Shown here in pieces: positions 3,833 through 49,892 of a DNA stretch of 64,000 bases. Position 1 is the first letter of the stretch, and each line of letters starts with the position of its first letter. The notes under the pieces are model-generated. The model did no database searches. It saw only the letters and a program-made list of their open reading frames with translations, and was not told the origin of the DNA. The stretch spans positions 62,001-126,000 of the forward strand of contig MEDY01000079.1 of NCBI GenBank assembly GCA_001724265.1, read 5' to 3'. This DNA is from Rhizaria sp. SCN 62-66. Taxonomy: Eukaryota. Position numbers and translations under genes: made by a program.

Positions 3833-6800
3833 TTACTCAGCCTCAGAGTCGGAGTCGTCGCCAATGGGGTCGCCCAACATTGCTGCCGGCGGGCCAACGG
3901 CGCCAGCGCGCTGCCGCAGCACGGCGGCCATCGTCAGCGCTGCGCCCCATGAAGGCACGAACACCTCTGCTGGCCGCTCCCACGCCAGTGGCGCGCCCTC
4001 GCACACAGGCTCCGAACTTGCGTTCACATTTTCGTTCTCGGAGTCGTTTTCCCCCTGTGCACCTGTCACAGTGCTAACGGTGTCAGCAGGGACATCGGTG
4101 GCATCATCCAGAGATTGTTGCACGGCGACAACATCGATTCCCGTGCCAAGGCCCTCACGCAATAGAGCGCGCGGGGCTGTTGCACGCGTGGGGCGCGGAG
4201 GCGAGCGCGGGCGCAGCACAGGCGGAACGCGCGCAACATCAGGCCGGTAGCGCAGCACGCCGTGCAGCTCGGACAGCATCGCGCGTGCGGCTGCGAGCGC
4301 CGCGGCGCCGGGCTCTGATGCGGGGAGCGGTGCTGACGGGCGCGGGCGTGCGTGCTCCCCCAGGCCCTCGAGCAGAGTGCCGCCATCTGATGAAAGTAAC
4401 ACAAAATACGATGTGTGAGAAGAGCATTGTGAGCGACGGAAAACGCGGAGAAACCAATAATAAACAAGAAAATACAGTCTCAGAGCAACAAGCATCAGAA
4501 TAGCGCAAGCGTACCAATATCACGACCCAGAGACACATTGAGGGAGCTCATGGCGCGCCCACCGAGATTGCCATTTGGAGAGACGTCGGCATCGCCGAGA
4601 GGTAGTGGCTGCGCACGTGTCGGTGCAGCCATCGCGGCCAGCGCCGCCCGGAGCGCAGCCAGCGCGACAGCGGGGACGTCCCGCGCGGCAGCCGCCGCAG
4701 CGAGGCGTTCGCACGCAGCCACCGCGGCTTCCGTGGCGGCGCGCGCGTTCGCTTCGGCAGCCGCTGCGGCGCGCGAGGCGGCGTCCGCGGCGCGCGCAGT
4801 AGCAGCGCGCGCGTAGATCATGTGGCCCTCCCAGCGCTGCTGCGCCGCAGCGGTCTGACTCACAGTCGCCAATGCGCGCACCGCGGCCGCCAGGCCGTCG
4901 TTGGCGTCAGTGGCCGCGCCCTCAACAGCGCCGACTGCTGGGCGCGCGGCGAGAGCCAGCTGCGCACCTGCAGCAAGCACCGCGGCACTGCTGCCCGTTT
5001 GCCCCTGCTCGCAAGCAGAGGCGGCAAGCGCTGCCAGCCCCGCGAAGTGCGAATCCGCGTTTTTGTCGTCATCCTCAGCGTTTAGTGGAATCGAGGGCAG
5101 CGCGGTGGCGATGCGCGTCCACAGAGATGCCGCGTCTGAGAGCAAGCGCAGCGCATCGGTCCGCGGCGCGGGCTCTGCGCCTGCGCACATGGCCGCTGCC
5201 TCACAGCCACCAGCGGCGGATACTAGGGCCGCCGAGCCCACGCCGCGCACGGCGATGCGCAGCGCGCTGGCCCGCGTGTGCGCGCAACGGAACGGCGCCT
5301 CGAGCGCGGGGCCCGCGACGGCGGCCGCGGCGCGCGGGACGTCCTGCCACAGCGCACGTACAGCCGAAAACAGACCCAACTGCATGTGCGCGCCGTCAGC
5401 GCCCATTAGCGCGGCGGCCGCGGCGTCGGCAGCGTCGGCAGCACGTGCAAGCGTGTCTGCGAGCGCAGAGGCGTGCGCGGCGCGGTGTGCGGCGAAGGCC
5501 AATACAGCCGTGTGGGCGCGCCGCAGCGTCGCATGCGCGCCTGCCGTCGCCGTCGCAGCGCCGCGTGGGTCACTTGTCGTGCGAGGCGCGGGTTCCCCAC
5601 TGTGACTCACAGACGCAGACGCGAGCCCTGAAGCGGCGGCAGCGGCGCCCAGCGCGAAGGCAGTCTTGTCGAGGTAGGCGGTAGCCGCGGCGGCCAGCGC
5701 GCACGGAGAGCGGTCCGACAGCAAACCACCCACCGACCGCAAAGAGTCAATGAAGTCCTCGCTGGTGTCCCTGTCAGATCCAGTGTTGACGTTTGCGCCG
5801 TTTGCGCCGTTTGCGCAGGAAGCGTCGTTTGCGCCGTTGTCGGTGTCGTTGTCGGCCCAGCGCAGTGGCGCACGCGGGGCGGCCGCGAGGTGCGCGCGCC
5901 ACAGCGGGGCGTTAAGCGCGGCGGGCAGCACTGGCGCGACTGCCGAGCTCGCGGTGGCACCAAGGCGCTGTGGCAGTGGCGGGAGCGGCGGGAGTGCAGT
6001 GGGGGCGAGCGCGTAGCCCTGGCCCACCAGTAGCGCGCGCGCCAGGTGGGCCGTGGCGGCTGCGGCAGCCTCGTGCAGCGCGCCAAGCGGCGCCAGCAGC
6101 ACCGCCAGCGTCGACACAGCAGCAGCGGGCTAACTCGATGTCGATGTCGATGACGATGACGATGCTGCTGCTAGAGATAAGCGGGGGGGTGATAGGAGCG
6201 CTTGAGCAGGGTTTGGGGCGCGCAGGCATAGCACCAATACAGCGAGACGCGGAAGTGCTGTGGCAAGTGCGGCGGCGCCCAGTAGCGCGGGACCAATGAC
6301 GGCGGGACGCCAGAGCCTTGGATGAAGTTCTGTAGGCAATGCTTGCGACACTGGCGCCACGGCAGCGGCAAGCGCGGCGGCGAGCAGCGATCCGCCAAGC
6401 AGCGCCACACACACGCAGGCGGCGCACGCAGCGGTGACGAGCAGCCGGTCAGCCTTGTCGCGCGGGCCATCTGCGGCCGGGGCCGACTCTGCGACAGCGG
6501 GCGCATTCGTCGCATCGAGGGACAGCGACCGTGCGTGCTGCGACAGGGCGCGGGCTGCAGTGCGGAGCGGGCCGCTCGCAGCGCGCCGCGCCGCAAGGGC
6601 AACAGATTCAGGCAGCACAAGAAACGTGCGCGAAAGGTACCCACGTGAACTGAGTGCGTTTGCCGACTTGGATGTGTCGTTGTTTGCTGTCGACTTTGGT
6701 GTGCTGGACGGGTCTTCGTCTGCTCCAGAGGCCGGGTTTGACGCAGAGTGGGTTTCAGCCAACGCGGCACGCAACGACAGACCGGGAATCAGCGCACGTG

Positions 6801-7240: not shown

Positions 7241-8938
7241 ATGTCCAAGAGGGAAACATCGTACGGCCTCTTGGCTGACGAGCATGAAACCTATGGAACC
7301 GAAAGCGGTACGTGACAGTAACACGATATTATTCCCGAGTTTTTCGAACTCCAACATTGCATTTTTCTTAATCCACCATGTTTTACTTTGTGAACCCTTT
7401 TTGTAACTCACTGCGCAGGTGTTGTCTACGCGGCTCCTGACTACCGAAAAGACGACGTCGTCCGCGGAGTCCCCAACGTGCACAGCCTGAACGTGTCCCC
7501 AGTGGGCGCCGACGACTTTGTCGATGACGACGAAGGCGACGCCGCTGCCGCAGCCCTCTCAGACACACCCCCGACGTTTCCGTCGCTGATCTACATCCCG
7601 TCGTGGCCTTTCCTGCTCTTGTTCGCGCTCTTCGTAACGCTGGTGGCGTTGTCCTACACCGTGCTGCGGCCCTTCATCGAGGATGAGCTGGGCGTGGACA
7701 TGTGCGTCGTTACCGAGGTCGGCTCGCTGCCGCTGATCAGCATCGCCTTCACGTACGTGCACGTGTACTTTGCGCTGTGGCTGACCTTCTACCCCGTCGC
7801 CTACGTCGGCTGCCTCCGCATCCCCGGCACCAACGTCGGGCTTGGCTGGCAGGGCGTCGTGCCCTTCAAGGCGCCACAGCTGGCGCAGCGCGCGCTGGAC
7901 CTTATGACGCGCCGACTTATCCGCGTCGACGAGATGTTCGCGCGTGTCGACCCCGCCTAGGTCTCCGCGACGCTGGCGCCGCTGGTCAAGCCCGTCGTCG
8001 CCGACGCCGCGCGCACTGCCGCGCGTCGCGTCGCGCCCACACTCTGGGCCGCACTGCCCGAGGACGCGCGCGCTGAGGTCTGCGCGCGCGCGGCGGCCGA
8101 GGCGCCCGCGATTGTCGAGGCCTTCTTCCACGAGCTGCGCCGTGACGTGCGCGTCGTGTTCGATCTCGACGCATACTTCGTCGGCGCTATGGTGCGCGAC
8201 AAGGAGCTACTGAACCAGATCTTCATCCGATGTGGCCACCGCGAGCTTCGCGTTATCCGCAGCCTTGGCGCCTGGCTGGGCGGCTTCTTCGGACTGCTGC
8301 AGGCCATTCTGTACGTCTTCTACGATTCGTTCTGGGTGCTGCCTGTATCGGGGCTGATCGTCGGCTGCTTCACCAACTGGCTCGCGCTCAAGGTGATCTT
8401 TGCGCCCGTGGACCCCGTGCCACTGTGCGGCGGCTGCTGTGTGCTGCACGGGCTCTTCCTGGCGCGGCAGAAGGGCGTCGCGGCCGAGTACGGCCGCACA
8501 GTCGCCGGTGAGGTGCTCACGGCGCGCAACATCACTGGCGCCATGCTGACCGGCCCGCGCGCCGCCGCGCTGCACGCCATCCTTGCGCGCCACTGCGCCG
8601 CCGCTGTCGACGCCACGCTCGCCAAGAGCGCGCAGCTCCACGCGCTCGTCGCCTCCGCCGCTGGGCCCGGGCCGGCGGCGGAGGTCGCGGCTGTGGTGAC
8701 TGAGGCTGTGGCGACCGCGCTGCCCGAGCTGCTCCGCGAGCTGTGCCCGCTGCTCGACCGCTCGCTGCAGATCGAGCGCACGCTGCGGCAGCGGCTCGGC
8801 GCGCTGAGCTCGCGCGAGTTCGAGCGCATGCTGCACCCCGTCTTTGAGGAGGACGAGTGGAAACTTGTGCTGCTCGGCGGCGTCCTCGCCGTCGGCATCG
8901 GCATCCTCCAGACCACGCTCATCAACACTGGCTGCTGA
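7241..8938 (+). CDS. DUF445-like membrane protein, 2 exons (7241-7307, 7419-8938), in-frame TAG at 7958-7960
   Basis: Motifs LGWQGVVPFKA, EMFARVDP, PTLWAALP, TNWLALKVIF.P, LSSREFERMLHPVFEEDEWKLVLLGG; ORFs 7478..7960 and 8147..8938 share a frame with only one TAG between them. Confidence 0.8.
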
Positions 8939-9301
8939 TGAGCGAGCAGACGCGCGCGTAGTCATGCGCTATGTCTTGTCACGGTTTGCTTCTGACAGTG
9001 CTGTGTGCACCCGATCATAGGCTGATATCGAGTTGTTTTGTCCGATAAATATCGAGTGTCTATTATAGTTTCCCTGGCAAACAATCATCCAGGTTTGTCC
9101 GCACAGCGTTCGCGGTGAGGCTCAGCGTTGAGTCAACGTTTATCTAGTATTCAAGTTCGGAGAACAGTTGTAGTGCGATCATTCAAATTTTTACTTAAGC
9201 TTAATATCCTTTAATACAGTGTTATTACATCGTTGCAACGTCCTCGTGTTATCAAATCTATACATGTTGTTCGATTTATCTTCATGATAATCATTTTTAT
9301 C

Positions 9302-12300: not shown

Positions 12301-14947
12301 CACTCGCGTGATGTTGCGGCAGCGACTGCGGCTGCTGACGGTGCCGCGGCCAGCCCCGCTGCCAGTGCTGCGGCGAGTCCGCGGTGGCACCGGGATCCAG
12401 CGTCAGCGACTGCGCCAACGCCTGCTGGTGATGCTGCTGCTGCTGCTGCTGGCCCACATGCGTGAGTGCGGGTGCGGACGCAGGCACGATGGCGAGCGTG
12501 GTTGCCGCCCAGTCTGCGTCGCGGCGGCCCGTGCGCCGGCGCCCGTGCAGCGCCTCGGCGTACGGCCGCAGCATCGCGGGCACGGCGGCGACGTGCGCGA
12601 GCGCTGACGGCGGGAGACCTGCCGCAGCGGCCACAGCAACGGCAGCTTGGGGCGTGAGCTCGCCGCCGGGCGCGACAATCAGGATCGTCGGCGCGCCGTC
12701 GCGGCCAGCGTTGTGCGTCAGCCGCAACGGTTGCTCTGTGTCACCGTACCCGTCGTAAGGCTCGTCCAGCGCAGCCACGTTGTCGCCGTCGTCGTCGCCG
12801 TCGTTGCTGCCGACGTTCAGCCCCGTGGCCCGCCCCGGTGCAAGCTGCACCGCGCGCGCAGGCCCGCGTGCGTAGAGGTCCTCACGCAGCGCGTGCGGCG
12901 CGCGCGCGGCCTGCGCGGCGAGCGGGACGAACCCGCGCTAGCCCGCGCGCGCGCCGGCGCCGCCCACGGCTGCGTTGCTGCCAGGTGGCGCCCAAGCCAC
13001 AGGAACGTCGTCCGCCGCGTTCAGCGCGGGCGCGAACGGCGGCGGCAGCGGCGGCGCGCCGCCAGGGAAGCCGTGTTGCATCTGAGGAGGATGGTGTTGC
13101 ACGCGCAGCTGCTGCTGCTGTTGCCACTGCTGCTGCTGCTGCGGGCGTTGTTGCTGCCACGGTGGCGACTGCGGCCACTGGCGCGGCGGCGAGCCCGGCC
13201 AACCGCCGGTCCCGGCGTCGCCACCAAACATCCCGTTCTGATGTCCATTATAAGGCCCGCTGTAAGGCGCATTGTGAGGTGCGCCATATGGAGCGCCGTA
13301 GGAGGCATGAGGCTCTGCGACGGCGCCGGGCCAAGCTGCGGCGCGGAGATGCTGCTGCCGCTGGTGCTCATGCCACAGCCGCTGCTGCTCCTGCTGGCGG
13401 CGCTGATGCTCGCGTTGCTGCTCCTGCTGGCGCTCCTGCTGCAGCTGCTGCTGCGCGCGCTCGCGCTCCTGCCGCGCGCGCTCGAGCTCCTGTGCCAGCG
13501 TTTGCTGTTGCTGTTGCTGTTCGCGCTCACGCTCTTCTCGTTCCGCGCGTTCGTGCTCGTCGCGCTGGGCTTGCTGCTGAGCCTGCTGCTGCGCTTGCCG
13601 CTGCGCCTGCTGCTGCAGCGCGGCCGCCACGGCGTCCTGCACCAGTGCCTGCAGCGCGCGCGGGGACGGCTCGCTGTCGCCGCTGCCGTTGCCGTTGCCG
13701 TTGCTGCTGTGGCGCAGGCGCGAGCCGCTGCGGCCGCGGCTGCTGCGGCGGCGCCGGCGGTGCGCGCGGCCCCAGGCGCTGGCGGCGTCGCTGCCCGCGG
13801 CCTCGTCGTCGCTGGTGCTGCCGCCGTAGCCGTCGCTGCTGTCGTTGCGCGGTGACCGCGGCGTCCGCATCGGTCCTTGCTGTTGCTGCTGTTGCTGTTG
13901 CTGTTGATGGGGCCACTGTGGCTGCCGAGACGGAGACTGGTGGGCGTGCGGGTGCGGCTGCTGCGGCGGCGGGAAAAAAGGCCACGTCCCGAGCGGCGCA
14001 TGTTGCTGTGCCAGCGGCGGCGGCGGCTGCGCGTGCGCAAACGGCGGCCCCATTCCGGGCGGCCACCCCACGCCCCACGCGACCTCCTCCCGCGACGGTC
14101 CCGCGGCGGCCGCGGACGCGGGTCGGGGCTGCTTCTGCGCGGCGCCGGCAACCGGCGCGGGGGCGCGGATGATCGTGCCCGCCAGAGACACGCCGACGAC
14201 CTTGCGCCGCGTGGGCGCCGCCGCGCCAGACACGGGTGTTGCGCTAGTTGAGCTGGTCGTGGCGGCGGCGGTCGCGGGACGGCTGGGCCCGGCGTACGGT
14301 CCCAGCGAGAGGTCCGCGGCAGCGGGGCGGAAGGGCTCGCGCGGCGCGCGCGCGGGCTGCGAAAAGGTCGCGCGCGGCGACCCCGCGGCGGAGCCCGCCA
14401 CGAAGGGCGGCTTGACATTCTTGCCCCGGCCTTTGCCCTGCGCCCCGTGGGTCGCGTGGGTCGCCGCGGATGCGGGGCGGCGCGGAGAGCTCCCCGCGCG
14501 CGCTTGCGGATGCGCGTACGACGGTGTGTGTGCGGGCGAGTGCGTGAATGAAGGTGAGCGGTCAGCGGCCGGTTGTGTGGCGGCAGCAGCGGCGGCGGCA
14601 GCAGGCGCGGGGGCGTACTGCGGCCACATTTGGAGCGGAAACGGCATGGGCGGGTACCCATACGATGGCGGCACAAAGAACGGCATGTACGGCGGCATGG
14701 GCGCCGAGTGCGGCGCGCCATGCGGCGGCACGGGGTGAGTGCCTGAGACAGGGCCAGAGCCGGCAGCGGGAGCACTGTCTGCCGGCGGGGCGGAGCCAGG
14801 GCGCAGGTGGGCCAGCCACGCCGCAAAGTCGGGCGGCGCGTGGCCATTAAACGCGGCCCCATTGCTGGCGGAGTCCGTCGGGTTTGAGGGCGGCAACGCG
14901 GGGCGCGCTGCCGGTGGCTCCGGTCCAAAGCCGTTAGTTGCTGACAT
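9302..14947 (-). CDS. Large low-complexity protein (~1880 aa) with Pro/Gln-rich N-terminus, coiled coils, Ala-Lys repeats and three C-terminal B-box zinc fingers; in-frame TAG at 12940-12938
   Basis: ORFs 12938..14956 and 9302..12850 are in frame, separated by TAG plus 29 sense codons; three CxxC..CxxC..C..C..H..H units (e.g. CTFCEEADATLYCAQCKDYFCPMCDTEMH); ends TAA. Confidence 0.7.
10215..10510 (-). repeat. Coding tandem repeat, ~18-nt units encoding AAA(D/E)AK
   Basis: About a dozen or more AAADAK/AAAEAK-type units in translation; degenerate at nucleotide level. Confidence 0.75.
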
Positions 14948-15872: not shown

Positions 15873-16867
15873 TTAATCGGCGCGCGCCTTGAGCTCGCGC
15901 GTGGTAACACCCTCGGGTGTGATGACGTGCACGACGCCGCCCCAGCCGGCGAGCGAGTCGCGGTCCATGGCGGCGAGCAGCACCTGCGAGAGCGTCTCGA
16001 ACAGGTCCTCGGGTGCCATGTCAGGACGGAACATGGCCTCGCAAACGCCGTGCAGCTGGTCACTCGTCGTGCCAGCGACCATGAAGTTGTCCGTGTACAC
16101 CGGCGCGCCCAGCAGGTCCATGCCGCACAGGAACGGGCGATACTCGGTCGTGGGGGCCGCGCCCGCGGCGGCGGCGGGCACGGCGACCTCCTCGAGGCCC
16201 GCAACGACGGGCTCCATGAAATAGGGCCCGAAGCGGCGCTCGTACAACAGCGACGACACCATGTTGGCAAAAACGCGCACCTTCATCGGGCGGCCCTCGC
16301 GCAGCTCGTACATGTTCTGGCGGAATTTGAACTTGTTGATGAGCGTCTGCACGTCCGACACGAGGCCAGTCATGCCGATCATGGCAGTGTCAGAGACCTG
16401 GTAGATCTTCTTCATGTCCATCGCGACCGTCTGGTGCTGCACGCCGAAGCGCGTGTCGCTCGCAATCGCCACGCAGTTCTTCCCAACCATGGCGACCATG
16501 GCCGCGCCGTTGTACTCCATAATACTCTGTGTGGCGTGAAAGAGGGGGCGAAATTGGGGTGAGAGATGTACGTTGGGGAGAGGGCAAGGTTCACAAGAGT
16601 ATCCCTGGTGGCATGAAGCCAATGTCACATGTGAAGATGGAACACTGATTTAAAAGGCAAGATACAAAGAATTTTCTAAAATAGCGCTTCCAGTTCACCC
16701 TAGAGTGATCTTGGGAACGATCGGCGCGTCTGATCATTTGGACCATAGATTGAGTTGGAGTCCCCGAACGGTTGTTGACCCAAGCCGATCTGAGGCTGAT
16801 CTTGATGTTGGAACAAATGTATCGCTGATGTCTAGGTGTAATTCGTTAAAATAAATTCACGTACCAT
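15873..16867 (-). CDS. PSMB3: Proteasome subunit beta type-3; coding part of exon 1 is ATG only (16867-16865), exon 2 16526-15873
   Basis: ATG|GTACGT donor and CAG acceptor give MSIMEYNGAAMVAMVGKNCVAIASD; SSLLYERRFGPYF; DRDSLAGWG; conserved C-terminus LKARAD then TAA. Confidence 0.93.
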
Positions 16868-17211: not shown

Positions 17212-18317
17212 ATGAGCGCCCCGGACACTGACGACTACGAGGTCAACGGGCTCAAGATCACGTCGAAGCCAAAGCGCTTCCGCGCGGGGCGCCGCAACAA
17301 CCTGGGTTTCGAGTTCGCGGCCGTGGACCCGTCGGAGCTGGCGCCCGTGATGTTGCCCGACGATTCCGACCTTGCCTTCCACGCGGCTGGGAACAACGAG
17401 GCCGCCGCGGGGGACGATGCCGCGGCTGCCGGCTCCAGCGCGGCCCGCCGCAGTGCTGCAGCCGCGGCCATGACTGCATCTGGGGCCGCTACCGCGCCCG
17501 ACGGCACCCCTCTGAAGCGCAACTTTGAGTGTACGGCCTCGCTCCTCTGTTCTCCTTACTCGTCTTAGTTTCTCTCGTCTCTTCTTCTATCTTGTGCTCA
17601 CCCACAACAGCTCACACCACGATTCCTCGTGTTGACATATATTTTGACTCTAGACCGCGACCATACTGCGGACATCCAGCTGCACGCGTGGGGCGCCGAC
17701 TTCCCCTCTGCGCTAGAGCACCTAGCTCTGTCTATGTTCGGCTACATGACCGACCTGGGCGGGGTCGCGCCGGATCCCGCGCACGCGCAGACCGTGTGCG
17801 TCGTTGCTGACGACCAGACGCAGCTTGTCTTCCGCTTTCTCGACGAGCTCCTCTACAAGTACGTCACTGAACAGCCTGTTGCATCATCAGATCATTTCTC
17901 TAATATCATCACGTTCCTTTGTAGCGTCTGCGCTTGCACACTGCTTGCGTTGTTTTGATACATTTTATGACGATCTTTTTATGTTTTCCCAAGTGTTTTC
18001 CTGATTGTGCTCACATCCTTATCGATCTAACTCTTTTTTGCTATTCATCTGTTGCTCGTTTTCGCGTGTGTTCGTGTGTGTTGCTTTGCTGTTTGGTTTT
18101 CAGCTTTCTGGAGGGCCCGCGCACGGTGTGCTGCGACGTATCGACGCTGTCGCTGCGGCGCGGCCCGCGCTGGGAGCTCCGCGCAGCGATCCAGGGCGAG
18201 CGCTTCGACGCGACGCGCCATAAGCGCGGCACGGAAGTCAAGGCCATCACTTACTCCGCTGCGGAGGTCGTCGAGACGCCCGACCGCTGCGACATTTACG
18301 TCATTGTCGACATCTGA
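17212..18317 (+). CDS. Archease (RtcB tRNA-ligase cofactor) with N-terminal extension; exons 17212-17530, 17654-17858, 18104-18317
   Basis: Spliced translation gives FEYRDHTADIQLHAWG, FLDELLY, GTEVKAITYS and terminal VIVDI; ends TGA. Confidence 0.9.
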
Positions 18318-18906: not shown

Positions 18907-20122
18907 ATGAGCAGCAACTTCTTGGCCAATCAGATGAAGAAGCGCGCCGCTGCGGCTGCGATTGCGAAGGTGGCGAACGAGGGGAAGACGTATCTCGCAG
19001 AGGAGTAGCACTTCAAGAAAGTGCTGGCCGAGGTCGCCAGCAACATCCCCAATATGACTCATACGCGTGATCGTGATGGCAACGAGCACGCCGTCAAATG
19101 CCAGAGCATTATCCGTCGTCTGCTGTCTGAGATGGTTCCCTTTGCCAACGGCGAGGCCACATCTGAGGGCGTCTACCTCTGGCCCAGCGTTTAGTCTGTT
19201 GTACGTAAATATACCTCTTTGCGACTGCTGTTTCCCCTTCATATCTATTTTTTCTTTGAACAACAACGAACATGCTTTAAGGTGTAGTCTGTATACCTCT
19301 ATCTCCTCTAATTGCCCTTGTTCTGTCTGTTTGTTCATTTCACGCTTCGCAACAATAGATGCTGTGGCACGGCGCGATCTGCGGCCCCGCCGACTCGGTC
19401 TACGAGGGCGCTATCTTCAGCGTGGAGGTCTCCATTCCCAGCGACTTCCCGCTCGCGCCGCCGCGCCTCAAGTTTACCAACTTTGTGCCGATGCACCCCA
19501 ACATCTCGGCCGACTCTGTGTGTCTGAGCCTCTTCAACCACGACTGGTCACCCGCGTACACGCTCTTCTCTATGATGGTTGCCGTGCGCTCGCTCCTTAC
19601 GGACCTGAACTGGGTACGCACAGCACATGCAATGGACACGCGATGTACATGCAGCCGCACAGCACTCGCAATAGTAGCGGCTGCTGCAAACGTGATGCCA
19701 CTTGCCAGTTTGTCAACGTGAGTTGCACGTGACAACTAAGTCGGTCAATCGAAACCTATGTGCTCCTTCACATCTTAACGAAGTTGATCCTTGTGACTCA
19801 CGAATTAGGTCTTCTTATTTCTTGCTATTTTCCGCATCTTTGTCCATCACAGGATTCACCGCTGAACAGGGAGGCGTACTCGCTCTACTGCAAGGAGGGC
19901 CTCGACGTTTTCGAGGCGGAAGCGCGTCAGCACTCACAGCAAGTGCGCGCGCCGACGGCCGCCGCCACGGACGCGCCACCCGCGCTGCTGATGCGATACA
20001 TCGAGGCGCGCGACCAGCTGGAGGCCGCCAAGGTGCGCGCCGCAGTCGACAACGCTGCGCTGCCCGGCGACAAGACGCCAGAAGTCGCTGACGCGTTGAT
20101 GAAGCGCGCGAACAACAAGTGA
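18907..20122 (+). CDS. Ubiquitin-conjugating enzyme E2 family; exons 18907-19200, 19359-19613, 19853-20122; two in-frame TAGs in exon 1
   Basis: IIRRLLSE helix 1, WHGAICGPADSVYEGAIF, FPLAPP, HPNISADSVCL (catalytic Cys), DSPLNREA; phase-0 GTACG..AG introns; ends TGA. Confidence 0.88.
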
Positions 20123-26969: not shown

Positions 26970-27662
26970 TCACTCGCATCTAGACACGCTGCTGATTTCC
27001 GCTTGGACCTGGGGTGCTGTTTCCGAGCTGGGCGCCGCGGCGGCGTGCAACGAAGGTGTCGCCGCATACTGCACTTCCTACTGCTGCGCCGTCTGCTGCT
27101 GCTGTTGCTGTTGCTGTGAGCCATACTGCGAACCGTACTGCGCACGATGTTGCGCACCGTACTGCTGCGTGCTGTGCTGAGGCGTGGCCGCGTGCAGAGG
27201 CGTGGTGCAGTCGGGGTACACGACGTCGGGCGGGGCGTCGTCGACGCGGAGCGTGGAGCGGCGCTGCAGCCCCTGTGCGAGCGTCTCCACTTTGACCGGG
27301 TTGGTGAGCACGTAGGTGTGGCAGAAACGGCACGCGCGCACGCTCTTGTGCTCGCGCCGCGGGTCCGCCAGGTTGAACGCTGAGCATGTTTCGCAGAACA
27401 CAAAGCCGCACGCGCGGCAATGGCTGCGCGGGGGGTGGCGAAGAGGATGGGAGAGCAGGGTGAGCGAGAATGAGTGAGCGCGAGTAAAAGGAGGGGCTGG
27501 GCGTGAAGTCAAGTAACGATGTTGAGAGAGTGAGGTGACGTACTGGCGACGAAAGGTTAGGGAGAAAGGCTTGTCGCAGCCGTTGCATTGGTGAGCCTGC
27601 TCATCTGGCTGCCAGGCAGAAGTGCCCGGCCAGGTCACGATTCCCGCCTTTGGGGTGGTCAT
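26970..27662 (-). CDS. FYVE zinc-finger protein; exons 27662-27544, 27423-26970; in-frame TAG at 27080-27078
   Basis: WQPD..CNGC..F; splicing restores RRHHCRACG; VRACRFC; frame continues 35 codons past the TAG to a TGA. Confidence 0.85.
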
Positions 27663-29327: not shown

Positions 29328-29663
29328 TTACGCCTTCTTATCGGCGGCGGCCGCAGCGGCCTCCTCGGCCTCGCGGCGCGCGCGCTCAAGCTTGCGCTGC
29401 TGCTGCGCCTCCTCCTGCTTGCGCGCGCGCGTGGTGACGTCGCGGTCAACGCGCGCCTGCAGCGCGGCGCGGCGCGCCGCCACAGCGTCGATGAGCCACT
29501 CGAGCGCGTGTGCCAGCGCCGCCGCGGCCGCGGGCTCAGGCTTGCCCTGCGCCAACAGCTTTGCAGAGCACGGCACCACGTGGAACAGGTCCGAGTGCGC
29601 GGACTAAAACGAGTGGAGCAAAAATGAATAACAAAAGTGGTCTTGTGAGTCAATATAGCTATA

Positions 29664-29698
<35 letters not shown>

Positions 29699-31212
29699 AA
29701 ATGCGTGACTTTCAATAGAGAAGACGAGTTCATGATTAGATAATAGATGATAGAGCGTACCTTAATCTTGAGCTTGACAATAACCTCGTGAGGCGTGATG
29801 TACCCCTTGGCGTCGTCATCATCGTCGGTCTTATTGAGCAGCACCAGCACGGGCTTGTCCGTCACTGACTCGTGAGCGAGCAGTGCCGCCCAGTCCGCCG
29901 CTGCGGTGTCCAGCGCACCGCGGTCACGCGCGTCGAGCACGAAAACGACGCCGTGCACGTCGGCGTAGTAGTGCGGCCAGATGCCTTTAATCTTGGCGCC
30001 GCCGCCGAGCCCGAACGCGCGCACCGGCCGCGCGCGCGCGCCGACCGGGAACACGTCCAGCTCGAAGCCGTTGGTCGGCGCCACGCTGGCTTCGGGTTCG
30101 TTCTTGAGTACGTTGACAATGGACGTCTTGCCCGCGCCCTGCGGACCGACCACGGCCACCGTCGTCTCGAACGCAGCCTTCCTCTTGCCGCCGCGGCGCT
30201 GCTGCTCCTGCTGCTGCTGACTGGCGTTACTGCCGCCGTTCTTGCGGAGCGCGCCGCGGTCGGGCTCGGGGCTCTCGTCGTCGGTGGGCGCGGGGGGTGC
30301 AAAGGCGCCGCAGGCGGTAATAAGCACGGGCTGCACGGGCCGCTCCATGCGCAGTGGCACGGCGTTGAGAGCGGTGAGCGCCTCCATGCCCAGCACGATG
30401 CGGCCGAATACGACGCGCTTGCCGTCGAGCGCGGGCAGCGCCTTGAGCGTGACGTAGAACTGCGAGTTGTTGGTGTGGGGCGAGCCGGCGGAGGCCATGG
30501 CAAGCACGCCGGGCCCGTCGTGGCCGCACTCGAGTGACTCGTCGGGGAAAAAGGGCCCGAAGATGGACTCACCGCCGTTGCCGCGGCCGGACACGACGTC
30601 GCCGAACTGCAGCCACGCGTCGCGTACCACGCGGTGCATCGGCGTGTTAAGGAAATGGAGCGCCGCGCCAGAGGGCGCCACGCCGCGCTCGCCCGAGCAC
30701 AGCGCAAGAAAGTTCTCCACCGTCTTGGGGCACCGCGCGGCGAATAGCTCGACGACTATGCGGTGTACGGTCGGCGCCGAGGAGCCCTCGGAGGCGGGGA
30801 TCGTGAACTCCAGAAACGCAAACTTGCTCTGGCCCTGCTTAGCGGCAACGTACGTGGCCAGCTGGTGCTCGGCGATGGCGGCGAACTGACCCTGCAGCTG
30901 CGCGTACGTCTTGCGGTCGGACCGCGGGTCGCCGGTCTGGTAGAGCTGGTCTGCCCATGCCACCAGCTCGTCTGTCGCGCCCACGTAGCCCACCACGCTA
31001 TGCGAGACCAGCGGCAGGTCCGTCGTGTGGTCATATGCGCGCCCGCCCAGCTCCTCCTTGGCGCGCGCGAGGTATTCGAGCCACTCGGCCTCGACCAGCC
31101 CGACCACGCGAAGCTTGAGCCCGGGATCCTCGGTCACGATGTCCTCCGCCACCAGCCGCGCCTCGTGGAACAGAGGGGAGCTCAGCGACCCTGAGACTGT
31201 CAGAATCGGCAT
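29328..31212 (-). CDS. Fusion of PPIL6-like cyclophilin and ARL13-like small GTPase with coiled coil; exons 31212-29761, 29603-29328
   Basis: CPKTVENFLALCSGE, HRVVRDAWLQFGD, GGESIFG, NNSQFYVT; then GPQGAGKTS, PTNGF, GLGGG..IKGIWPHYY, LLNKTD, LEWL plus coiled coil; ends TAA. Confidence 0.85.
29663..29701. repeat. (AC)7 followed by a ~25-nt A run, inside intron 29760-29604
   Basis: Read directly. Confidence 0.85.
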
Positions 31213-39087: not shown

Positions 39088-39841
39088 GCGCAGCGTGCGA
39101 CGCAGAGGTCGCTACTAGACAGCGTGTGCTTGCTTGCTGCGAGCAGACAGTTTGTTAGGCTCTTGCGCGCAAATGGAAGGGGGGCCAGCTGTCTGCTGGC
39201 GGCGTCGTTGCAACGACAGCGGGCGGGCCACTCGGCAGCAGCATCGGAGACTGCAGCGGCTGCGGTGTTGCGCTGCGACTGCTGCGCCGCGACTCTCTCT
39301 TTTATTCTCTTATTAGACCGCGCTGCGTGCGCGGGACTAATGTTTTGTACTGGACTACGGGGCTATTCAGTGATCCATGCGGAGATAGCTTTGGGAAAAA
39401 TGTAGATTTGATCACAGTAAAAGATACGGTGTGTGTTTTTAAGCTTAGAATTTTGATGGTGGAGCAGGATACGATGACTCAATGACTTTTGTTTGAAATT
39501 GCGTTGAAGAACAAGACCGCTGGTAGGCGGCGATACGAGGGATATAGGCAAGGTGCTGGTGTGGAAGTAAGATGTCTCACATTAACAATGTGTGATTTGC
39601 CGTAAAACAATACAGAATGTGAAATAAACAAACATAAGTACGTCAGAAAATGGTAAAATAGCTGTCTTCGAAGAGCTGCGAGGCGGTCCCTCGACGTGCA
39701 AAAGCGTCAGTGGGGTTTCTTATATTGTCCTGAAAACCGTTCAGTGTCCGTTGAACCCGGTATGAATATCAACACAAAACGTGAAATGTGTGCTTATATA
39801 TATTCACGCAATTATACTTTCTAAAAATGACTCTGTATAGA

Positions 39842-42800
39842 ATGAACCGCTTGTACGGTCCGGCAGTCCCGCCCGCGTTTGCGCGGCGGATGGCCGAGGC
39901 CTACGGCCCCGTAGAAGGTGCGCGGTTGGCTGAGGCGATCGGCGCCTAGCCGCAAGTGACGGCCGTGCGCGTGAACCCGCGCCGTGCGGCGGCCGCGGTG
40001 CTTCCGCTGCGGCGCCTGCCCGGCGCGCAGCCCCCGTTCCGCGGCATTGCGGACGCGAGCGAATTTGTGGCTGGACGCTTCGCACGCAATGCGCTCATCA
40101 CGCGCGTGCACCGGCAGACCCAGCTTGAGCGCAGGGGTGGCAAGGGCGTGACGCCAGACGCTCCGCCCGAGCCCCGCGCCAGGCCGCGCTTCGACCCCGT
40201 TCCGTGGAACGCGCGTTGGGGTGTCTACCTCCCGGGCCCGAGCAATCCTTCGTGCGCCGCCATCGCTATCAGCGACACAGCGCAGCCGGACGCGCTACTT
40301 GGTACCGGCGGCGCTGCGACCACAGCCTCTATGCTCTCTGGCGGCGCAACGGACAGCGTTGTCCTCGTCTCATCGAACTTCGCGAACGCAGCGGTCGCCC
40401 CGTACTCAGGCCCCCGCATCAATGTCAGCACTGCCAGCAGCAACAGCAACAACAGCGGCGGCTCCGCGATGGCAATGCACGCGGACCCGCTGTACACAGC
40501 CGCAGGGCTGTACTACTCGCAGGACGCCGCCTCTCAGCTGCTCGCAGCGCTGATCGAAACAGATGCAGACTCAGCCGCTTCTGTCGCAGACAGCTACACA
40601 GCCCATTCAGCGCAGTCGGCGCTCGAGCTTGGCTCTGGCTTCCTCAGCGGTGGCCGCGGCAACGACGTCACCCTGGGCAGCGCAAGCGGGCTAACAGAGC
40701 ACTTGAACGCGAGCAGCGCTGTCACTGGCGCGGGCGCAGTCGCTGGTCGTCCGCTGCGAGTGCTCGACCTGTGTGCCGCGCCGGGCGGCAAGAGCACGCT
40801 TCTCGCTGCGACGCTCGCGCCGGGCTCGCTGCTCATCTCGAACGAGATCGACCCGCGGCGCGCGCGCGTGCTGGTCGAGAACATGCTTCGCCACGCAGCT
40901 CTGCCCGCCGGCGCCGCTCTTATCGTCACAAACGCGGCCGTCGAGGCCTTCACGGCGCGCCGCGCGCTCACGGACGCCGCGGCCGCCGACGCCACCGACG
41001 CGGCGCACCGCAGCGGCGGCGCGCCCGGCGGCAGGCTTACACTTGCCAGCGTTGCTGCGCTCCGCGCGCACCCGCCGCGCCAGACCGAGCTCCCCTCGCT
41101 CGCCGCTTTGCACAGCTGTGGCGGCGGTGCTGCGCAGAGCAGGCGCGAGGCTGCCGCTGCGCCGGTGCGCTCGCTGGCGGGGTCGGCGGCGCTGGTGTCG
41201 TCGCTGGGCGCGCGGGGCCCGCTCGCGGCCGCGGGTGTGGCGGCCGACGCGCCCGGTCTGCGGCGCTACGCGCGCGGGTCCACTGCGCTCGCGCTGCCTG
41301 GCACGCCCCGCGGCGCCGAAACCGTGCTTATGACCCCCCTAGGCGGCCCCGCCGCAGTGCTGTCACGGTCGCAGTCCTCAGGCGGCGGTGGTGGCCCGTG
41401 GCGGCCGTTCGCGCCGCCCGCGGCCGCGCTGGGCGAGCCGGCCGGCCTGGAATCGTTCTTCGACCTGGTCATTCTCGACGCGCCGTGCTCGGGGTCGGCC
41501 ATGTTCCGCCGCGAACCCGCCGCAGCGGCGGCGTGGACGCCCTCGATGCCACGCGAGCGCGCTGAGCTGCAGCACGCGTTGCTGGGCGCCGCGCTGCCGC
41601 TCGCGCAGCGCCTCGGCGGGCGGCTGCTCTACATGACGTGCTCGCTCGATCCGGTCGAGAACCAGCACGTCGTCGCGCGCGCGCACCGCGCCGGGCTCCG
41701 CGCCGCGCCCGCGATTGTTACCACCACAGCGGGGTCCGGCGACGGCGGCAATGCGCTCCGGCAAGGCGTCCCGCTGCGCATGGCCTGCCCCGAACCCGTG
41801 CCGCTGCCGCTGCCGCTGTCCCCGCGCGCCGCTGCGTCTGCACCCGATATGTTTGCGACGGCGCAAGGGCGCGCAGTGGCGGATCTGGGCCCGTGGCGCG
41901 GTCCGGAGCCGCCCGTGGGGCGCGCCGTAGCCGATGCGCCCGTCGCGCCGGTGTCCACCGCCGTGGCGCGCGGCGCGGCAGCGGACCTGCTGCCGCTCGA
42001 CTTCCCGGCCCTCAAGCGCGCGCCCGCCGCGTGGGGACTGGTCGAGACCGTGCTCACGGCCGTAGAGGACCCCGATGATGAGGACGCGGCGGCGCTGCGG
42101 GCCGCGCTTGCGGCACCCGCACGTACACTACTCAGCGCCAGCTCTAGCTCTAGCTCAAGTGCTGACTCGACGGACGACGTGGAGAGCGCTGATCTGCCGA
42201 AGCTCCCCGTGCGCGCGCACAACGGCCCCGCGCACGGCGGCAGTTCGGCTTCGTCGGCGCGCGGACTCTTGCAGCACGGCGCGCTGTCTCTGTTCGGCTC
42301 GGTCCCCGGCAGCAGCGGCGCGGTGGCCGCCTCGCCAGCGGAGCGGCTGTCGCGCGCGCTGTGGCTCGATCACGCGACGTACCTCGCGCTGCCCTCGCGC
42401 GCGCGCCTCGAGGGCTCCTTTGCGGCGGGCTTTGTCCGCGGCGACCGCGCGCAGGTGCTGGCGGCCGCGGCGGCCGCGCTCGAGGCCAACAGCAGCGCCG
42501 TCGGCGCCGCGCTGGCGAACACCGCCAGCGCGCGCGAGGCGGTGTGGCGGCTGCGCGCGGCAGCCACGCCCACGTCGTCGTTCCGTCCCACGGCCGCCGC
42601 GGAGGTCACGGCGGCCGCGGTCACAGCCGCCGACGCCGGCTCGCCCGTCGCCGCCGCGGTTGCCGCCGCGCGCCGCGCGCTCAGTGCCGGCGGCCGCGGC
42701 GCGCCACCGCTGCTGCTGGGCGACCCCCGCGCGGCGGTTGTGAGTGGCGCGGCGGCGGGCAGTGGCGCGAGCAGCGCTGCTGGCGGGCTTGCGGGGGCGC

Positions 42801-44155: not shown

Positions 44156-44544
44156 CAGTCACGCATCACATATCTCCCTGCATTTTTACTCGAGCATGAT
44201 CTCAATATGATATATAGAATGTGTTATATAGTTTATTTATTAGTCCTCCAATACATCTCTGTGTTTTGATGCTAGTTGGTTCAAGTTTGTATTCTTAATC
44301 CTGCGCTTATTCATGGTTTTGACACAAACGACCACGAATCGTTTTTGAGCGGACAGCTTGTGCCTGACTGCCATGATAATCTTGATCATTGATGTGTGTG
44401 ACCCTGTCGTCATGTTGCTCTGATGAGATAATGTCTACATTTAATCATTGTTTTAGTATTCACTTTATACTTGAACTCTCCTTAATTCTTCGTCATCCTT
44501 TCAGAAACCACTACATCTTATCGCACGAGTCAGATCTTTCACTC

Positions 44545-46686
44545 ATGAGCCTGCCCAACTACAATCCGGATGAGCTGGCGCGCCAAGAGCGCGAAGTTCA
44601 GGAGAAGATTGATAAGTTTTCGTCGCTTGCTTTGGAACCGACCGTGCCTGACACTGGTGGCGATGCAGGTGGCGATGACAACGACGACGACCTGGATATG
44701 GCTGCACTCGAGCACAGCGACAACGACGACACGATGCTCAAGATGTTCGAGGGAGGGGGCGACGACGACGATGCCATCTTAAAGAGCTTTAACCGCGCAG
44801 AAGCCGGTGATGACCACGGCGGTGCGGAGATGAACGACGCAATGTTGGTCCGCCTTGAGAAGGAAATCGCGGCCGAAGACGAAGCCGAGAACGCCATCAT
44901 CAACGGCACAGCTGGCAAGAAGCCCGCAGCAGCTGCGTCCAAGCCCGCCGCCACAGCCGCGCCCCCGCGCCCCGCGGCTGCGAAGCCCGCGCCCGCCGCG
45001 CCCCCGCATTCTTCTGTTGCAAAGCCCGCGTCCGCATCTGCGCCTGCGTCCGCTCCCAAGCCATCGACCGCTACGGCGACTGCGATGACTGCGACGAAGC
45101 ACACGGGCCCGCCCGTGCCTCCCGTGCGCATCGCCGACGGCGGGAGCAAGTTGGCCACGGCGGCGCCCGCGAGCAGCGCGGCTGCTGCCGCTGCTGCGGC
45201 CTCCGCGAGCGCGTTTGCGGAGCTCTCCGCGCGTCTGACTGGCAACATCGCCTCGCTGAGCGCGCATATCAAGGCGCTGCTCGTCCAGAAGCAGCTCGCC
45301 GAGACCGCGGCCAAGTCGGGCAAGTCCTCCGCTGCGCCGGCCCCCGCGGCGGGCTCGTTTGAGGCGGAGGCGTCGCGCGCGCTGGCGCTGCGGCGTTCGC
45401 TGGAGCACGCGCTGGCGCGCGTGGCTCAGCTGCAGCGCGCGGCGGCGGGCCCGGCCCCTGGGTGGTCGCTGCGCAGCGTGCCGCTGCAGCGCGAGGTCGC
45501 GCTCGAGGAGGTCGCCGCGGACACCGTCGAGGTCTGCGTTGACTGCTTCGCGCCCGCGCGCCGCGACTCGAGCGGTGGCGATACGCTCACGGCGCACGTC
45601 GCGCTCGACCTGGGCGCGGGCGCGCCGCCCGAGGTGCACACGGGGTGGGCCAAGCAGGACACTGCGGGCAACGCGCGGTGGGCGGCGACGCTGCCCGTGG
45701 CGCTGCCGGCCAACTGGGCGCGTTCCACGGCCGTCACGCGCGCGCTGCGCGCCCTGCGCGCGCGCGTCGTACTCAAGAAGAAGGGCGTGCTGTGGGGCAC
45801 GAAGGATCTGGGCGCGGGCGACTGGCGCGTCGGCGCGGCGCTCACTACCGCATGCGAGGCTGCCGAGGCTGTCAAGGTGCGCGATACCGACGACCAGGTG
45901 CTGGGGACGGTCGCGCTCAGGCTGCGTGTGCGGCGGCCGCTCGCGCGCAGGCTCTTTGTCACCGAGGCGGTGCTCATCGCCACCGTCGAGTTCGACGATG
46001 AAGTCGAGCTAGCACCCGCGGCAGCTAAGTCTGTCGCTGCTGCTGCTGCTGCGCGCACTCCGCGCCAGGCTGTCTCGACCGCCGAGCTTCTCGGTTCCGC
46101 GCCTGCTGCTAGCGCTGGCACGGGCACTGGCGTTGGCGCGGCAGCAGCAGCGAAGTCCACGCCCGCGCCCGCCGAAGCTGCTGCCGCAGCGAAGGAAGCG
46201 GAGGGCGAGCTTGAGGGCGACGCGCTACTGCGCGCGGCGGGCGCGCCGGCGGGGGTAACGTGGGCCGAGCTTGAAGTCGCGGGCACTCCGCAGGCGACGC
46301 CGTCATTCGACGCGCTCAACGCGATCAAGGCCGCCGCGGAGGCCGCGGGCAAGGCCGCCGCGACCGCGGGGCGCACGCGCGAGGCCGCAGCGCAGCAGGA
46401 GATTGTGGGCGAGTGCGATCGCATGGTGATGTTCTTCGAAGTTGCCGTGGGTTCCGGTAAGTTATCACTCGACGACTACCTCGATGCGCTTAAGGCCGCC
46501 GTGGCGCGAGAGCGCAAACACATGCAGACGCTCGTTGCGCTCGCTAAGTTCTATCATGGCCGCGGGGACAGCGCCAAGTTCAAGGAGTTCGGCGCCAAGG
46601 CCAAGGCGCTCGCAGGCACCGTGCAGATCATGGAGCAGGAGATCAAGACGGCTGAAGAGAACCGCGACGAACTCGACCAGGAGTAA
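44545..46686 (+). CDS. CC2D1/Lgd-like coiled-coil and C2-domain protein
   Basis: C2-like segment KKKGVLWGTKDLG..TACE..LRLRVRRPL and C-terminal helical region (LDDYL..IMEQEI) resemble CC2D1A/B; ends TAA. Confidence 0.6.
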   Translation: MSLPNYNPDELARQEREVQEKIDKFSSLALEPTVPDTGGDAGGDDNDDDLDMAALEHSDNDDTMLKMFEGGGDDDDAILKSFNRAEAGDDHGGAEMNDAMLVRLEKEIAAEDEAENAIINGTAGKKPAAAASKPAATAAPPRPAAAKPAPAAPPHSSVAKPASASAPASAPKPSTATATAMTATKHTGPPVPPVRIADGGSKLATAAPASSAAAAAAAASASAFAELSARLTGNIASLSAHIKALLVQKQLAETAAKSGKSSAAPAPAAGSFEAEASRALALRRSLEHALARVAQLQRAAAGPAPGWSLRSVPLQREVALEEVAADTVEVCVDCFAPARRDSSGGDTLTAHVALDLGAGAPPEVHTGWAKQDTAGNARWAATLPVALPANWARSTAVTRALRALRARVVLKKKGVLWGTKDLGAGDWRVGAALTTACEAAEAVKVRDTDDQVLGTVALRLRVRRPLARRLFVTEAVLIATVEFDDEVELAPAAAKSVAAAAAARTPRQAVSTAELLGSAPAASAGTGTGVGAAAAAKSTPAPAEAAAAAKEAEGELEGDALLRAAGAPAGVTWAELEVAGTPQATPSFDALNAIKAAAEAAGKAAATAGRTREAAAQQEIVGECDRMVMFFEVAVGSGKLSLDDYLDALKAAVARERKHMQTLVALAKFYHGRGDSAKFKEFGAKAKALAGTVQIMEQEIKTAEENRDELDQE

Positions 46687-47107: not shown

Positions 47108-49892
47108 ATGTAGTACCCACCTTCCAGTGCTATTGAATGTTTCTTGGCAGCGTATTCTGAAGCGCGAGCTAAACTTTTGCAAGGTACATCTCAACAACCA
47201 CGAAACCGTGGTCTTCCTTCGCCACTACTATCAGCTGGATTTATCGTTCACAAGCCCTTATCACTAACAACTTGCCATTTTTCCCTTTACAGACGATGCG
47301 CTTGGTGCTATCGCTATTGTGACGAACGTTATCTCCGCCGTGGAGGCGCGCCTGGAGGCGACAAAAGACCCCTTCGCCACCTCGACCACCTCATCCGTCT
47401 TGCGGGACCTGGTGATTGGCGCCGGCTCCTCGACTGCGCCTGTGACCACGCACACCACGCGCGCGTACGACTTACTCGCGTCGCTGCAGCCGTTTCTGTG
47501 CCCGCTGCTCGCGCTACGCGCGTGGGCGCGCTCGCGTGAGGACGACTTCATCGGCGTCATTCAAGACGCCTCCCTCGCTTTGCGGCTCGCAGAAGAGCCC
47601 ACGCCGCGCTCGCCGGCGCCTGTCTACTCGTGGTGCACCGCGGACTGCGTGCCCTCGTGCCTGGCGCTTCGCGCGCTGGCGCTTGCGTTTGTGGGCTCGT
47701 CGTCCAACGCTGCGCGCGACCGCGACGCCTTGCCCCTCGCACTGCCCGCGCCGCCGCTGCTGACTCTGCGCGAAGGTCGCGAGCTCGCAGTCGCGCTCGG
47801 CGTCCCAACAGCGACCGCCGAGGACGGCACTGCGACCGCTGTTGCGGATGCGCAGGCGGGGCGCGCGCTGGCGGCCGCTCTTGAGGCGCTCGATGCGCTC
47901 GCACTCGCAGCCTCCGCAGCCGCCGCGGCGCGCGCCGGCCGCGGGCGCGGACGCGCGACGGGCACCGCCGCGCTCACCGCCGTGCTGCGACCGCTGCGGC
48001 TTGCCGTGGAGACGCTCTGTAGCAGCGCGGATAGCGGCAGTGGCGGACGCGCCGCGCTGGTGGCCGCGCTGCAGGATGCGATGCACGACTCGGCCGAGGC
48101 CTCGCGGCGCGAGCGCGAGCGCGAGCCCACTCCAGACCGTAGCGGCGCGGGCGCAGCCGACCTCGCCGCGGCGACGATCCGTGTCGTGGGCCACGCGGAC
48201 GACGCGGCGGCCGCGGGCGGCGGCGCGGGCGCTCCCGCCCTGCTGATCGCGTCCCGCGAGCTTGAGGCTGGCGTGCGCGCCAAGCGCCGCGAGATGCGCG
48301 ACGCGCTGCGCCGCCAGCGCGCCGAACGCGACGCCGATGCGCCACTGCGCAGCGCTGCCGCGCGTGTGTGCGCCACGCTGCTCGTGCACCTCTGGCCGCT
48401 GGAGCTGCCCGCGGACGCCGGCGACGCCGCGCGGGCCGCGGCGGCGGGCGGCACCGTGGATCTGCTGCTCGACGACCGGCTCGTGCTGGGGCTGCCTGAC
48501 GCCGCGCGCTGCTACCACGTGCTCGTGCGCGCGCTCTGCCGCGAGCTGCCCGCGCCGCCCCGTACCCCGCGCTCCGCCGCGCTCGCCGCGCTCGCCGCGT
48601 CATCTCCATCTAGGTCTAACTCTGCATCTGCATCTGCGTCTGTGAGCGCGATGCACGCTTCGTCGCCAAACACGTCGGCGTGCCGCGAGATCGCGCAGCG
48701 GCAGCTCGCTGCGTGGCTTTCTGCCTGGGCGGCGGCCCACGCGCCCCCGCGCGTGCTCGCCGCGGCCTCCCGCGTCGCCCCCGCGCGCTCTAACAACTCC
48801 GCCGGCGGCGATGGCGGCGGTGGCGGCGGGTGGGAACGCGACTATAGTGCGCTGGTCGACCGCGGACGCATCCTCTTTCCGTCGGGACTTACCGCGCTGC
48901 TGTCGGTTGACGCCGCCGTGGACGCGCTCGACGGCCTGCGCCGCAGATAGGAGCGCAAGGAGTTTGCCGTCGCGCGGACCTTCGTGCGCGCGCGCTGTGA
49001 CCCGCGGATCCCACCGCCGCCGCCAGTCATCAAGACCATCCCCGCTGTTGCGCCGCCGCAGTGCACACCGGCGTCCGCAGCGCCGCTCTACGCCACGCAG
49101 ACGCTGACGCCTGCTGAGGCTCAGACCCAGCCTCTTCTGCAGCCGCTGCATCAGCTGGTACAGCAGCAGGCGCCGCAGTCTGCGCGGCGCGCGCGGCTGG
49201 AGGCGCAAATCGAGCTTGCGCGCAACAACGGCCCCTCACTCACTGCGGCCTCCCGCTCTTGGTTCCGCGCGCGCCCCCAGAACGCCGCGTTATTTTACAC
49301 TGCAGACGTTGCGACAATGCAGCCGGCGCTGCGGCGCGGCTTCACCGTGCGCGCAGCGGGCGCGCCGCCGCTGGTGCCGTCGCCGCCGCCGCGCCGCCGC
49401 GGCGTGCTGGCCGATTGCGTGTCATACGCGGCTGTGGGACGCCACGGCGGCGGCGTCAGCAGCGGCGGCGATGAAGTTTCGGATGACGCAGCGCGCGAGT
49501 CCACGGGCGCTGGGTTCAGTGGCGCTATGTTCAGCGGTAACGGGCCCACTGGCCTTGGCGCCGGCACTGGGGCTGGCACTGGCATAGGTGCTGGTTTGGG
49601 CACATTTCTCACCGAGGCAAGCGAGGGCAACGCGGCACACGGTGTGGCACAGCACAGAACTACAGAGGCGACGGCGTCAGTGACGGCGACGAAGACTGGG
49701 TTGCCATCGCTGTATGTGCGCAGCCTGGCGCGCACACGCGCGGGGGCGCGTGGCCGCAGACGCGGCACGGCGCCCGTCCTGCTGCAGGACGACGACGCGA
49801 GCATGATCCACACTGAAGCAGGGCTCCGCGTCTTCAGCATCTTCCACAAGAACCAGGTCCCTCCGCACGAGCATGACCAAGATCCGTTTTAA
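47108..49892 (+). CDS. Hypothetical protein; exons 47108-47183, 47293-49892; in-frame TAGs at 47111-47113 and 48948-48950
   Basis: ORFs 47319..48950 and 48984..49892 share a frame across one TAG; a GTACAT..CAG intron links an upstream exon beginning ATG TAG TAC; ends TAA. Confidence 0.6.

Follow-up and report, generated by a model that had tools for sequence, protein, structure and literature searches.

UAG as a probable sense codon in the nuclear DNA of an uncultured, GC-rich wastewater eukaryote

We analyzed a 64-kb stretch of contig MEDY01000079.1 (the whole of which is called the window below) in which several protein-coding genes contain the triplet TAG in frame. The window has a G+C content of 65%, with GC-rich open reading frames (ORFs) alternating with AT-richer spacers; its coding regions are 65-75% GC. 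The gene set is eukaryotic: it includes a proteasome beta-3 subunit, an E2 ubiquitin-conjugating enzyme and archease, as well as FYVE, RING and B-box proteins, a GH31 glucosidase, a cyclic-nucleotide phosphodiesterase and an ABC transporter. Several studies, dated from 2015 to 2025, produced metagenomes of bioreactors, wastewater and activated sludge in which near-identical DNA is present, and the source is therefore an uncultured eukaryote whose DNA was assembled from metagenomes. The window is nuclear DNA of this GC-rich, intron-bearing member of wastewater and bioreactor communities.

In-frame TAG triplets in the window

An earlier reading of the sequence (the original prediction) had listed nine in-frame TAGs in seven otherwise intact genes and had proposed that UAG is translated, probably as glutamine, while UAA and UGA terminate. 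All nine triplets were found at the coordinates and in the frames claimed for them. The TAGs and the genes in which they lie are as follows.

7394..8938, plus strand: ORF of a DUF445 (UPF0754-like) gene, Pfam PF04286, with its TGA end at 8936-8938
7958..7960, plus strand: in-frame TAG, residue 189 of the DUF445 ORF
12938..12940, minus strand: in-frame TAG joining ORFs of 675 and 1,211 codons in a B-box zinc-finger gene (9302-14965)
18907..19200, plus strand: exon 1 of the E2 ubiquitin-conjugating enzyme gene, from cDNA, with in-frame TAGs at 19006-19008 and 19192-19194
19201..19358, plus strand: E2 intron 1, 158 nt, GT..AG, placed by the edges of cDNA contigs X5 record 12 and X7 record 27
19359..19613, plus strand: E2 exon 2 (UBC core), with a UQ_con match, from X7 record 27
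39827-44155, plus strand: RsmF-like methyltransferase gene, starting at ATG 39827
39947..39949, plus strand: in-frame TAG, residue 41 from ATG 39827
48948..48950, plus strand: in-frame TAG joining ORFs of 560 and 313 codons in an unnamed gene (47293-49892)
6130..6132, minus strand: TAG in a low-complexity, Ala/Ser-rich ORF; unsupported
27078..27080, minus strand: TAG close to the FYVE gene's end, preceded by a poly-Gln run
47111..47113, plus strand: TAG directly after the sole ATG of a putative first exon; unsupported

A codon-usage score, trained on six long unambiguous ORFs, was applied to every in-frame stop in all six frames, using flanks of 30 or 60 codons; the 60-codon flanks had to be free of other stops. 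With 60-codon flanks, TAG 7958 was the sole stop in a real gene with strongly coding sequence on either side; the three other matches lay antisense to genes of the plus strand. When the flanks were shortened to 30 codons, TAGs 12938, 19006 and 48948 passed as well. This six-frame scan of the window bore out the claim that there is no comparable internal TAA or TGA. As candidate coding interruptions, TAA 47265 was rejected as intronic and TGA 62080 as antisense. Within-window paralogues of the TAG flanks were sought, and low-complexity matches only were found.

Sequence from other sources came from Logan contigs of four runs: X3 is DNA from another study, X5 and X7 are cDNA, and X6 is poly-A RNA. 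The X3 contigs carry TAGs 7958, 12938, 19006 and 19192, which confirms the triplets at these four sites.

For six of the nine TAGs the evidence supports a position within coding sequence, strongly for 7958, 19192 and 39947 and moderately for 12938, 48948 and 19006. The census of the original prediction does not hold for TAGs 6130, 27078 and 47111, and thus not for two of its seven genes. The upstream flank of TAG 6130 is non-coding-like (-0.73 and -0.50 bits per codon), and the ORF that holds it matched no Pfam family. After TAG 27078, 36 weakly coding codons with a negative codon score lead to a TGA, and this TAG could be read equally well as the terminator. The putative exon with TAG 47111 has a low GC3 and is not coding-like, and its frame fits phase-1 splicing into the 47293 ORF. 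TAGs found shortly before the GH31, ABC-transporter and 61568 ORFs precede the start codons of those ORFs.

Evidence from the individual genes

When the DUF445 gene is aligned with the 20 homologues found, the closest of which are 48-53% identical, TAG 7958 falls in a conserved stretch free of gaps, F-x-R-[LV]-D-P-x-TAG-[VI]-A. The query keeps 24 of 24 invariant columns, all of which come after the TAG, as well as the near-invariant columns before it. The first in-frame ATG past the TAG is 77 codons away, and W218 (invariant) and D257 (near-invariant) lie in this interval; the downstream half is therefore not producible alone. The codon score over 60 codons was 0.61 bits per codon upstream of the TAG and 0.51 downstream. 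Contigs of the DNA run X3 matched 7664-9654 with 0 mismatches, TAG 7958 included; there was no cDNA over this site among the contigs listed. The C-terminus, LINTGC, is conserved as in relatives, and the TGA follows it directly. At the other end of the ORF (7394-7700), no ATG lies upstream of the conserved PPxFP motif, and the search for a 5' exon and start codon was negative there; the first exon and the start are therefore probably farther upstream.

For the RsmF-like gene, a HMMER search returned 16,013 relatives, and a profile was built from 104 of the 149 non-window matches among the best 150 listed, those of 420-500 residues. Positions 3-45 of this profile align to residues 13-57 of the window's protein, across TAG 39947 (15.7 bits, E 6e-7). 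The N-terminus alone matched the home-built profile only and no NCBIfam model. The next in-frame ATG is 128 codons after the TAG, past the conserved RVN motif. A public protein, P0029 (39956-44155), begins at a GTG three codons after TAG 39947; this start is a standard-code gene caller's cut at the TAG, and annotation of such metagenomic eukaryotes is therefore systematically wrong. Public collections hold the window's genes as fragments cut at a TAG or at introns, P0029 being one and P0179, the ORF of E2 exon 2, another; P0179 is recorded on 6 contigs of up to 84,336 bases.

The E2 gene is the one for which cDNA could be brought to bear on the TAGs. That X5 and X7 hold real cDNA of the window's organism was seen in the archease gene, where their contigs show the joints 17530>17654 and 17858>18104 (GT..AG) while the DNA run X3 runs straight through. 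The first of the archease introns contains a TAG of its own:

17531..17653, plus strand: archease intron 1, GT..AG, with in-frame TAG 17566 inside; joint 17530>17654 in X5 and X7

This intronic TAG is removed in the cDNA and serves as a control; splicing is therefore detectable with these data.

In E2, cDNA contig X5 record 12 matches 18899-19200 with 0 mismatches, ends its match exactly before a GTACGT donor and continues for 130 more letters. X7 record 27 spans exactly 19359-19612 with extra letters on both sides; the E2 joint itself was absent among the rows shown. The original prediction had named splicing out or editing of the TAGs as an outcome that would count against it. In the spliced cDNA contig both E2 TAGs are unspliced and unedited; UAG survives splicing unedited in this one gene.

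Residues 2-82 of E2 exon 2 match positions 29-110 of the 140 in the UQ_con profile (E 7e-22), and W34 of Ubc4 in the PDB aligns with residue 3 of the exon. Exon 2 is without UQ_con positions 1-28, and exon 1, in frame through TAG 19192, must therefore encode them. The codon score upstream of TAG 19192 is 0.46 bits per codon. Exon 1 alone gave no E2 match in PDB or Pfam, and homologue searches with E2 returned the window's own ORF P0179 only. TAG 19006 also lies in the mature mRNA and has coding-like flanks (0.69 and 0.37 bits per codon); an ATG follows it 16 codons downstream, so that a 5' untranslated region is a possible reading for this TAG.

The introns of the window have a recognizable form. 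Donors at 17531, 17859, 19201 and 19614 on the plus strand and at 29763 on the minus strand read GTACGG, GTACGT, GTACGT, GTACGC and GTACGC, respectively, and the three cDNA-supported introns are 123, 245 and 158 nt long. An alternative E2 donor, GTTTAG, use of which would skip TAG 19192, was rejected as a misfit because all five donors examined begin with GTACG. Over the approximately 15 kb of X3 contigs listed, the sole difference from the window was a T>C at 19436, in E2 exon 2.

The two halves around TAG 12938 in the B-box gene are in one frame and have a matching GC1/2/3 pattern, with codon scores of 0.25 and 0.23 over 30 codons and 0.40 downstream over 60 codons. After this TAG, 122 coding-like codons pass before an in-frame ATG and 1,212 codons before a TAA or TGA. 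The DNA run X3 matched 11224-13444 with 0 mismatches, TAG 12938 included, and an X6 contig crosses 12721-13097. Other X6 contigs (records 20 and 21) cross the archease intron 17531-17653 unspliced, and X6 thus holds unspliced RNA or DNA of the window's organism; the two are therefore indistinguishable in this run, and its contig over 12938 speaks for continuity only. The unnamed gene gives a similar picture. Both halves around TAG 48948 are in one frame with a matching codon-position GC pattern, and their codon scores are 0.29 before the TAG and 0.26 after it; 123 coding-like codons separate this TAG from the following ATG, and the frame stays open up to a TAA 314 codons on.

Termination codons and the meaning of UAG

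The original prediction had modelled 18 gene ends, nine TAA and nine TGA, with none at TAG. Our recount gave 19 ends (8 TAA and 11 TGA), and the absence of TAG stood. Typically, TAG makes up about 20% of stops. At that share, none in 19 would have a probability of p ~0.014, the sample being small and TAG 27078 ambiguous. Two features of the minus strand bear on these ends.

15873..15875, minus strand: TAA terminator of the proteasome beta-3 gene; the last query residue aligns to residue 205, the last of mouse beta-3 3unb_I (E 3e-71)
29602..29763, minus strand: intron of the cyclophilin-Arf gene, with TAG 29659-29661 inside; GTACGC donor, ttttag acceptor, read from sequence

The alignment to mouse 3unb_I confirmed that TAA comes right after the conserved C-terminus of beta-3. 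In archease, a TGA follows the end of the profile (136/136). The only apparent TAG end, 29659 on the minus strand, was rejected as intronic: the donor GTACGC directly follows AAG ATT AAG, and the gene ends at TAA 29328. This intron contains 25 consecutive T and a (TG)n microsatellite; the last exon, which comes after it, is short and rich in Ala and Glu.

In at least three genes of the window, UAG occurs within coding sequence that is conserved and under selection. We consider it highly probable that UAG is a sense codon in this organism and that UAA and UGA are still stops. The proposal that UAG is translated while the other two terminate is supported by homology across a TAG in two genes, by unedited cDNA, by the DNA of run X3 and by the lack of TAG gene ends. 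By analogy with known cases, decoding would be by a cognate tRNA with the anticodon CUA, and eRF1 would have lost recognition of UAG. As a sense codon UAG makes up 6 in 15,198 codons (~0.04%), a rarity that would fit a young or weakly decoded codon.

Several observations weigh on the other side. The analysis covers one 64-kb window, which is a small sample. Three of the nine TAGs (6130, 27078 and 47111) are without support as coding, and TAG 39947 falls in an insert column of the RsmF profile. The very low frequency of UAG in frame is expected also if the codon is still harmful. All six interrupting stops are TAG, but this is weak evidence (p ~0.12 under random nonsense mutation) because 70% of the single-base routes from the window's codons to a stop give TAG. 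The cDNA evidence for retained TAGs is limited to E2, and no spliced cDNA over the other TAG sites was among the contigs listed. Logan contigs drop minor variants, and partial RNA editing is therefore compatible with them. ARAGORN and Rfam found no tRNA genes in the window, and thus no tRNA(CUA) there. Rfam found no other RNAs in the window either, and the eRF1 gene is not in it.

As to the amino acid, glutamine is our best guess, with about an even chance of being right. The grounds are precedent, the single transition that separates TAG from CAG, which is the dominant Gln codon of the window (448 CAG vs 58 CAA), and the polar contexts of the sites. UAG read as Gln corresponds to the type of code in NCBI table 15. 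The DUF445 column at TAG 7958, the one column usable for this question, is variable among the 20 homologues (E4, A4, V3, R3, Q2, D2, K, T, I), and the CAG CAG TAG context cited in the original prediction is that of the unsupported site 27078.

One possibility is that UAG has a dual or context-dependent meaning, or that near-cognate readthrough occurs at particular sites while UAG still terminates elsewhere in the genome. The rarity of UAG in frame, the possible true terminator at 27078 and the small number of gene ends would all fit such a situation. On the other hand, none of the 19 ends is unambiguously TAG, the nine TAGs are followed by different bases (four by C, three by G and two by T), and two essential-looking enzymes would need readthrough to make their conserved cores. 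We therefore regard dual meaning as improbable. Slightly less probable again is that the organism uses the standard code and that the TAGs are nonsense mutations which have become fixed in pseudogenes, or else polymorphisms among strains. The predominance of TAG among single-base routes to a stop would explain interruptions by TAG only; however, this would make pseudogenes of five out of about 19 genes, although 314 to 1,402 open, codon-biased codons are kept after each TAG with no frameshift, every invariant residue of DUF445 downstream of the TAG is retained, and E2 is transcribed and spliced. DNA from another study carries identical TAGs, and the lack of TAG terminators would be left unexplained.

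It could also be supposed that UAG is changed to UGG (Trp) by A-to-I editing of the mRNA, a process known from certain filamentous fungi in their sexual stage. In Fusarium, such editing corrects premature in-frame UAGs. A UAG stop, too, is reported to be removed by editing in that fungus (PMC13123824). The cDNA over TAGs 19006 and 19192 has 0 mismatches, although a minor edited fraction is compatible with the contigs, and Trp occurs in none of the 20 DUF445 homologues at the aligned column. Editing would have to affect about a quarter of the genes, far above the share in Fusarium, and it too leaves the absence of TAG terminators (0/19) unexplained; we consider it very improbable. The last alternative, that the TAGs are artefacts of assembly or sequencing or are themselves intronic, has next to no probability. 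Two other in-frame TAGs, 17566 and 29659, are indeed intronic. However, DNA contigs of independent origin are identical to the window at four of the TAGs, the alignment at 7958 is gapless, and the end of E2 exon 1 at 19200 is fixed by cDNA, with GTACG at five of five donors. Translation of UAG, with UAA and UGA as stops, is thus the reading we prefer.

Affinity of the organism and known UAG-only codes

Three weak leads point toward Amorphea or Amoebozoa: a type III polyketide synthase (PKS), the Asn-rich character of the best DUF445 match, and a CC2D1/Lgd-like ORF. The genes concerned, and the cyclophilin-Arf gene mentioned above, are the following.

33190-39087, plus strand: hybrid of 1,965 residues with an AMP-binding domain, a carrier domain (weak PP-binding match) and a C-terminal type III PKS
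44386-46686, plus strand: ORF of 766 residues, no Pfam family, with language-model look-alikes
29328-31311, minus strand: cyclophilin and Arf-family GTPase domains in a single ORF

The best solved relative of the hybrid's type III PKS domain is Steely1 (PDB 2h84; E 2e-56, the next being 1e-37), which is from Dictyostelium. Judged from its domains, the hybrid is a fusion of the Steely kind whose N-terminal loading part differs, and it offers a lead toward Amoebozoa. The look-alikes of the 44386-46686 ORF include CC2D1/Lgd-type proteins with DM14 and C2 domains, mostly opisthokont, with scores of 0.91-0.92, and are a lead only. The organism is probably not a ciliate: its coding GC content (65-75%) and its introns of 123-245 nt would set it apart from ciliate genomes.

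A scan of metagenomes with beta-3 returned two contigs. L001 (2.5 kb) lies inside the window and its organism is identical; L002 (1,243 bases) encodes a beta-3 that is 69% identical, has 60% GC, shares an Ala-rich insertion and ends in a TAA stop. By sequence comparison, L002 appears to belong to a related species. It holds no in-frame TAG and is therefore uninformative on the code. Contigs of prokaryote genomes were scanned for misbinned contigs of the window's organism, and none were found.

In our literature search, which did not cover supplements, there was no report of UAG reassignment in a wastewater eukaryote or in Amoebozoa. The chances seem to us evenly balanced that this is an independent, undescribed reassignment of UAG in a free-living, GC-rich, non-ciliate wastewater eukaryote, maybe an amoebozoan and maybe at an early stage. 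Should the organism prove to be an amoebozoan, its supergroup would have its first variant nuclear code. The view that the stage is early would be in keeping with a codon that is gone from gene ends and yet still accounts for so few sense codons.

UAA and UAG almost always change meaning together, and their uncoupling is rare (PMC5304391, PMC11687900). One such case is Iotanema spirale, a fornicate in which UAG encodes Gln while UAA and UGA are stops (PMC5304391). As in that species, UAG alone is reassigned in the window and UAA and UGA terminate; however, Iotanema is described there as an anaerobic gut flagellate (PMC5304391), unlike the GC-rich wastewater eukaryote with GTACG-donor introns studied here. 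The rhizarian exLh (Sainouroidea) reads UAG as Leu, with 384 in-frame UAGs in 71 genes, so that it is a major Leu codon, and its genes end in UAA (56), UGA (15) and never UAG (PMC5304391). The window resembles exLh in that UAG is the sole reassigned stop and is absent from gene ends. It differs in having about six in-frame UAGs in about 19 genes, and in alignment contexts that are polar or variable, with no conserved Leu in the alignments at hand.

In phyllopharyngean ciliates, UAG encodes Leu or Gln, is widely used as a sense codon, and UAA is the preferred stop (PMC11687900). There, too, the reassignment concerns UAG without UAA, which still terminates, while in the window UAG is rare as a sense codon. 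In the oligohymenophorean ciliate PL0344, UAA and UAG encode different amino acids (PMC10553269). The meanings of the two codons are uncoupled in PL0344 as they are here, although both are sense codons in the ciliate and UAA is a stop in the window.

A further uncoupled case would be an independent data point on how eRF1 and tRNA(CUA) separate UAA from UAG. The present one would come from another type of organism, which is GC-rich and uses UAG very little, and may show codon capture at an early stage. UAG-only reassignment has already been described in a fornicate, a rhizarian and some ciliates, and the window looks like a further case.

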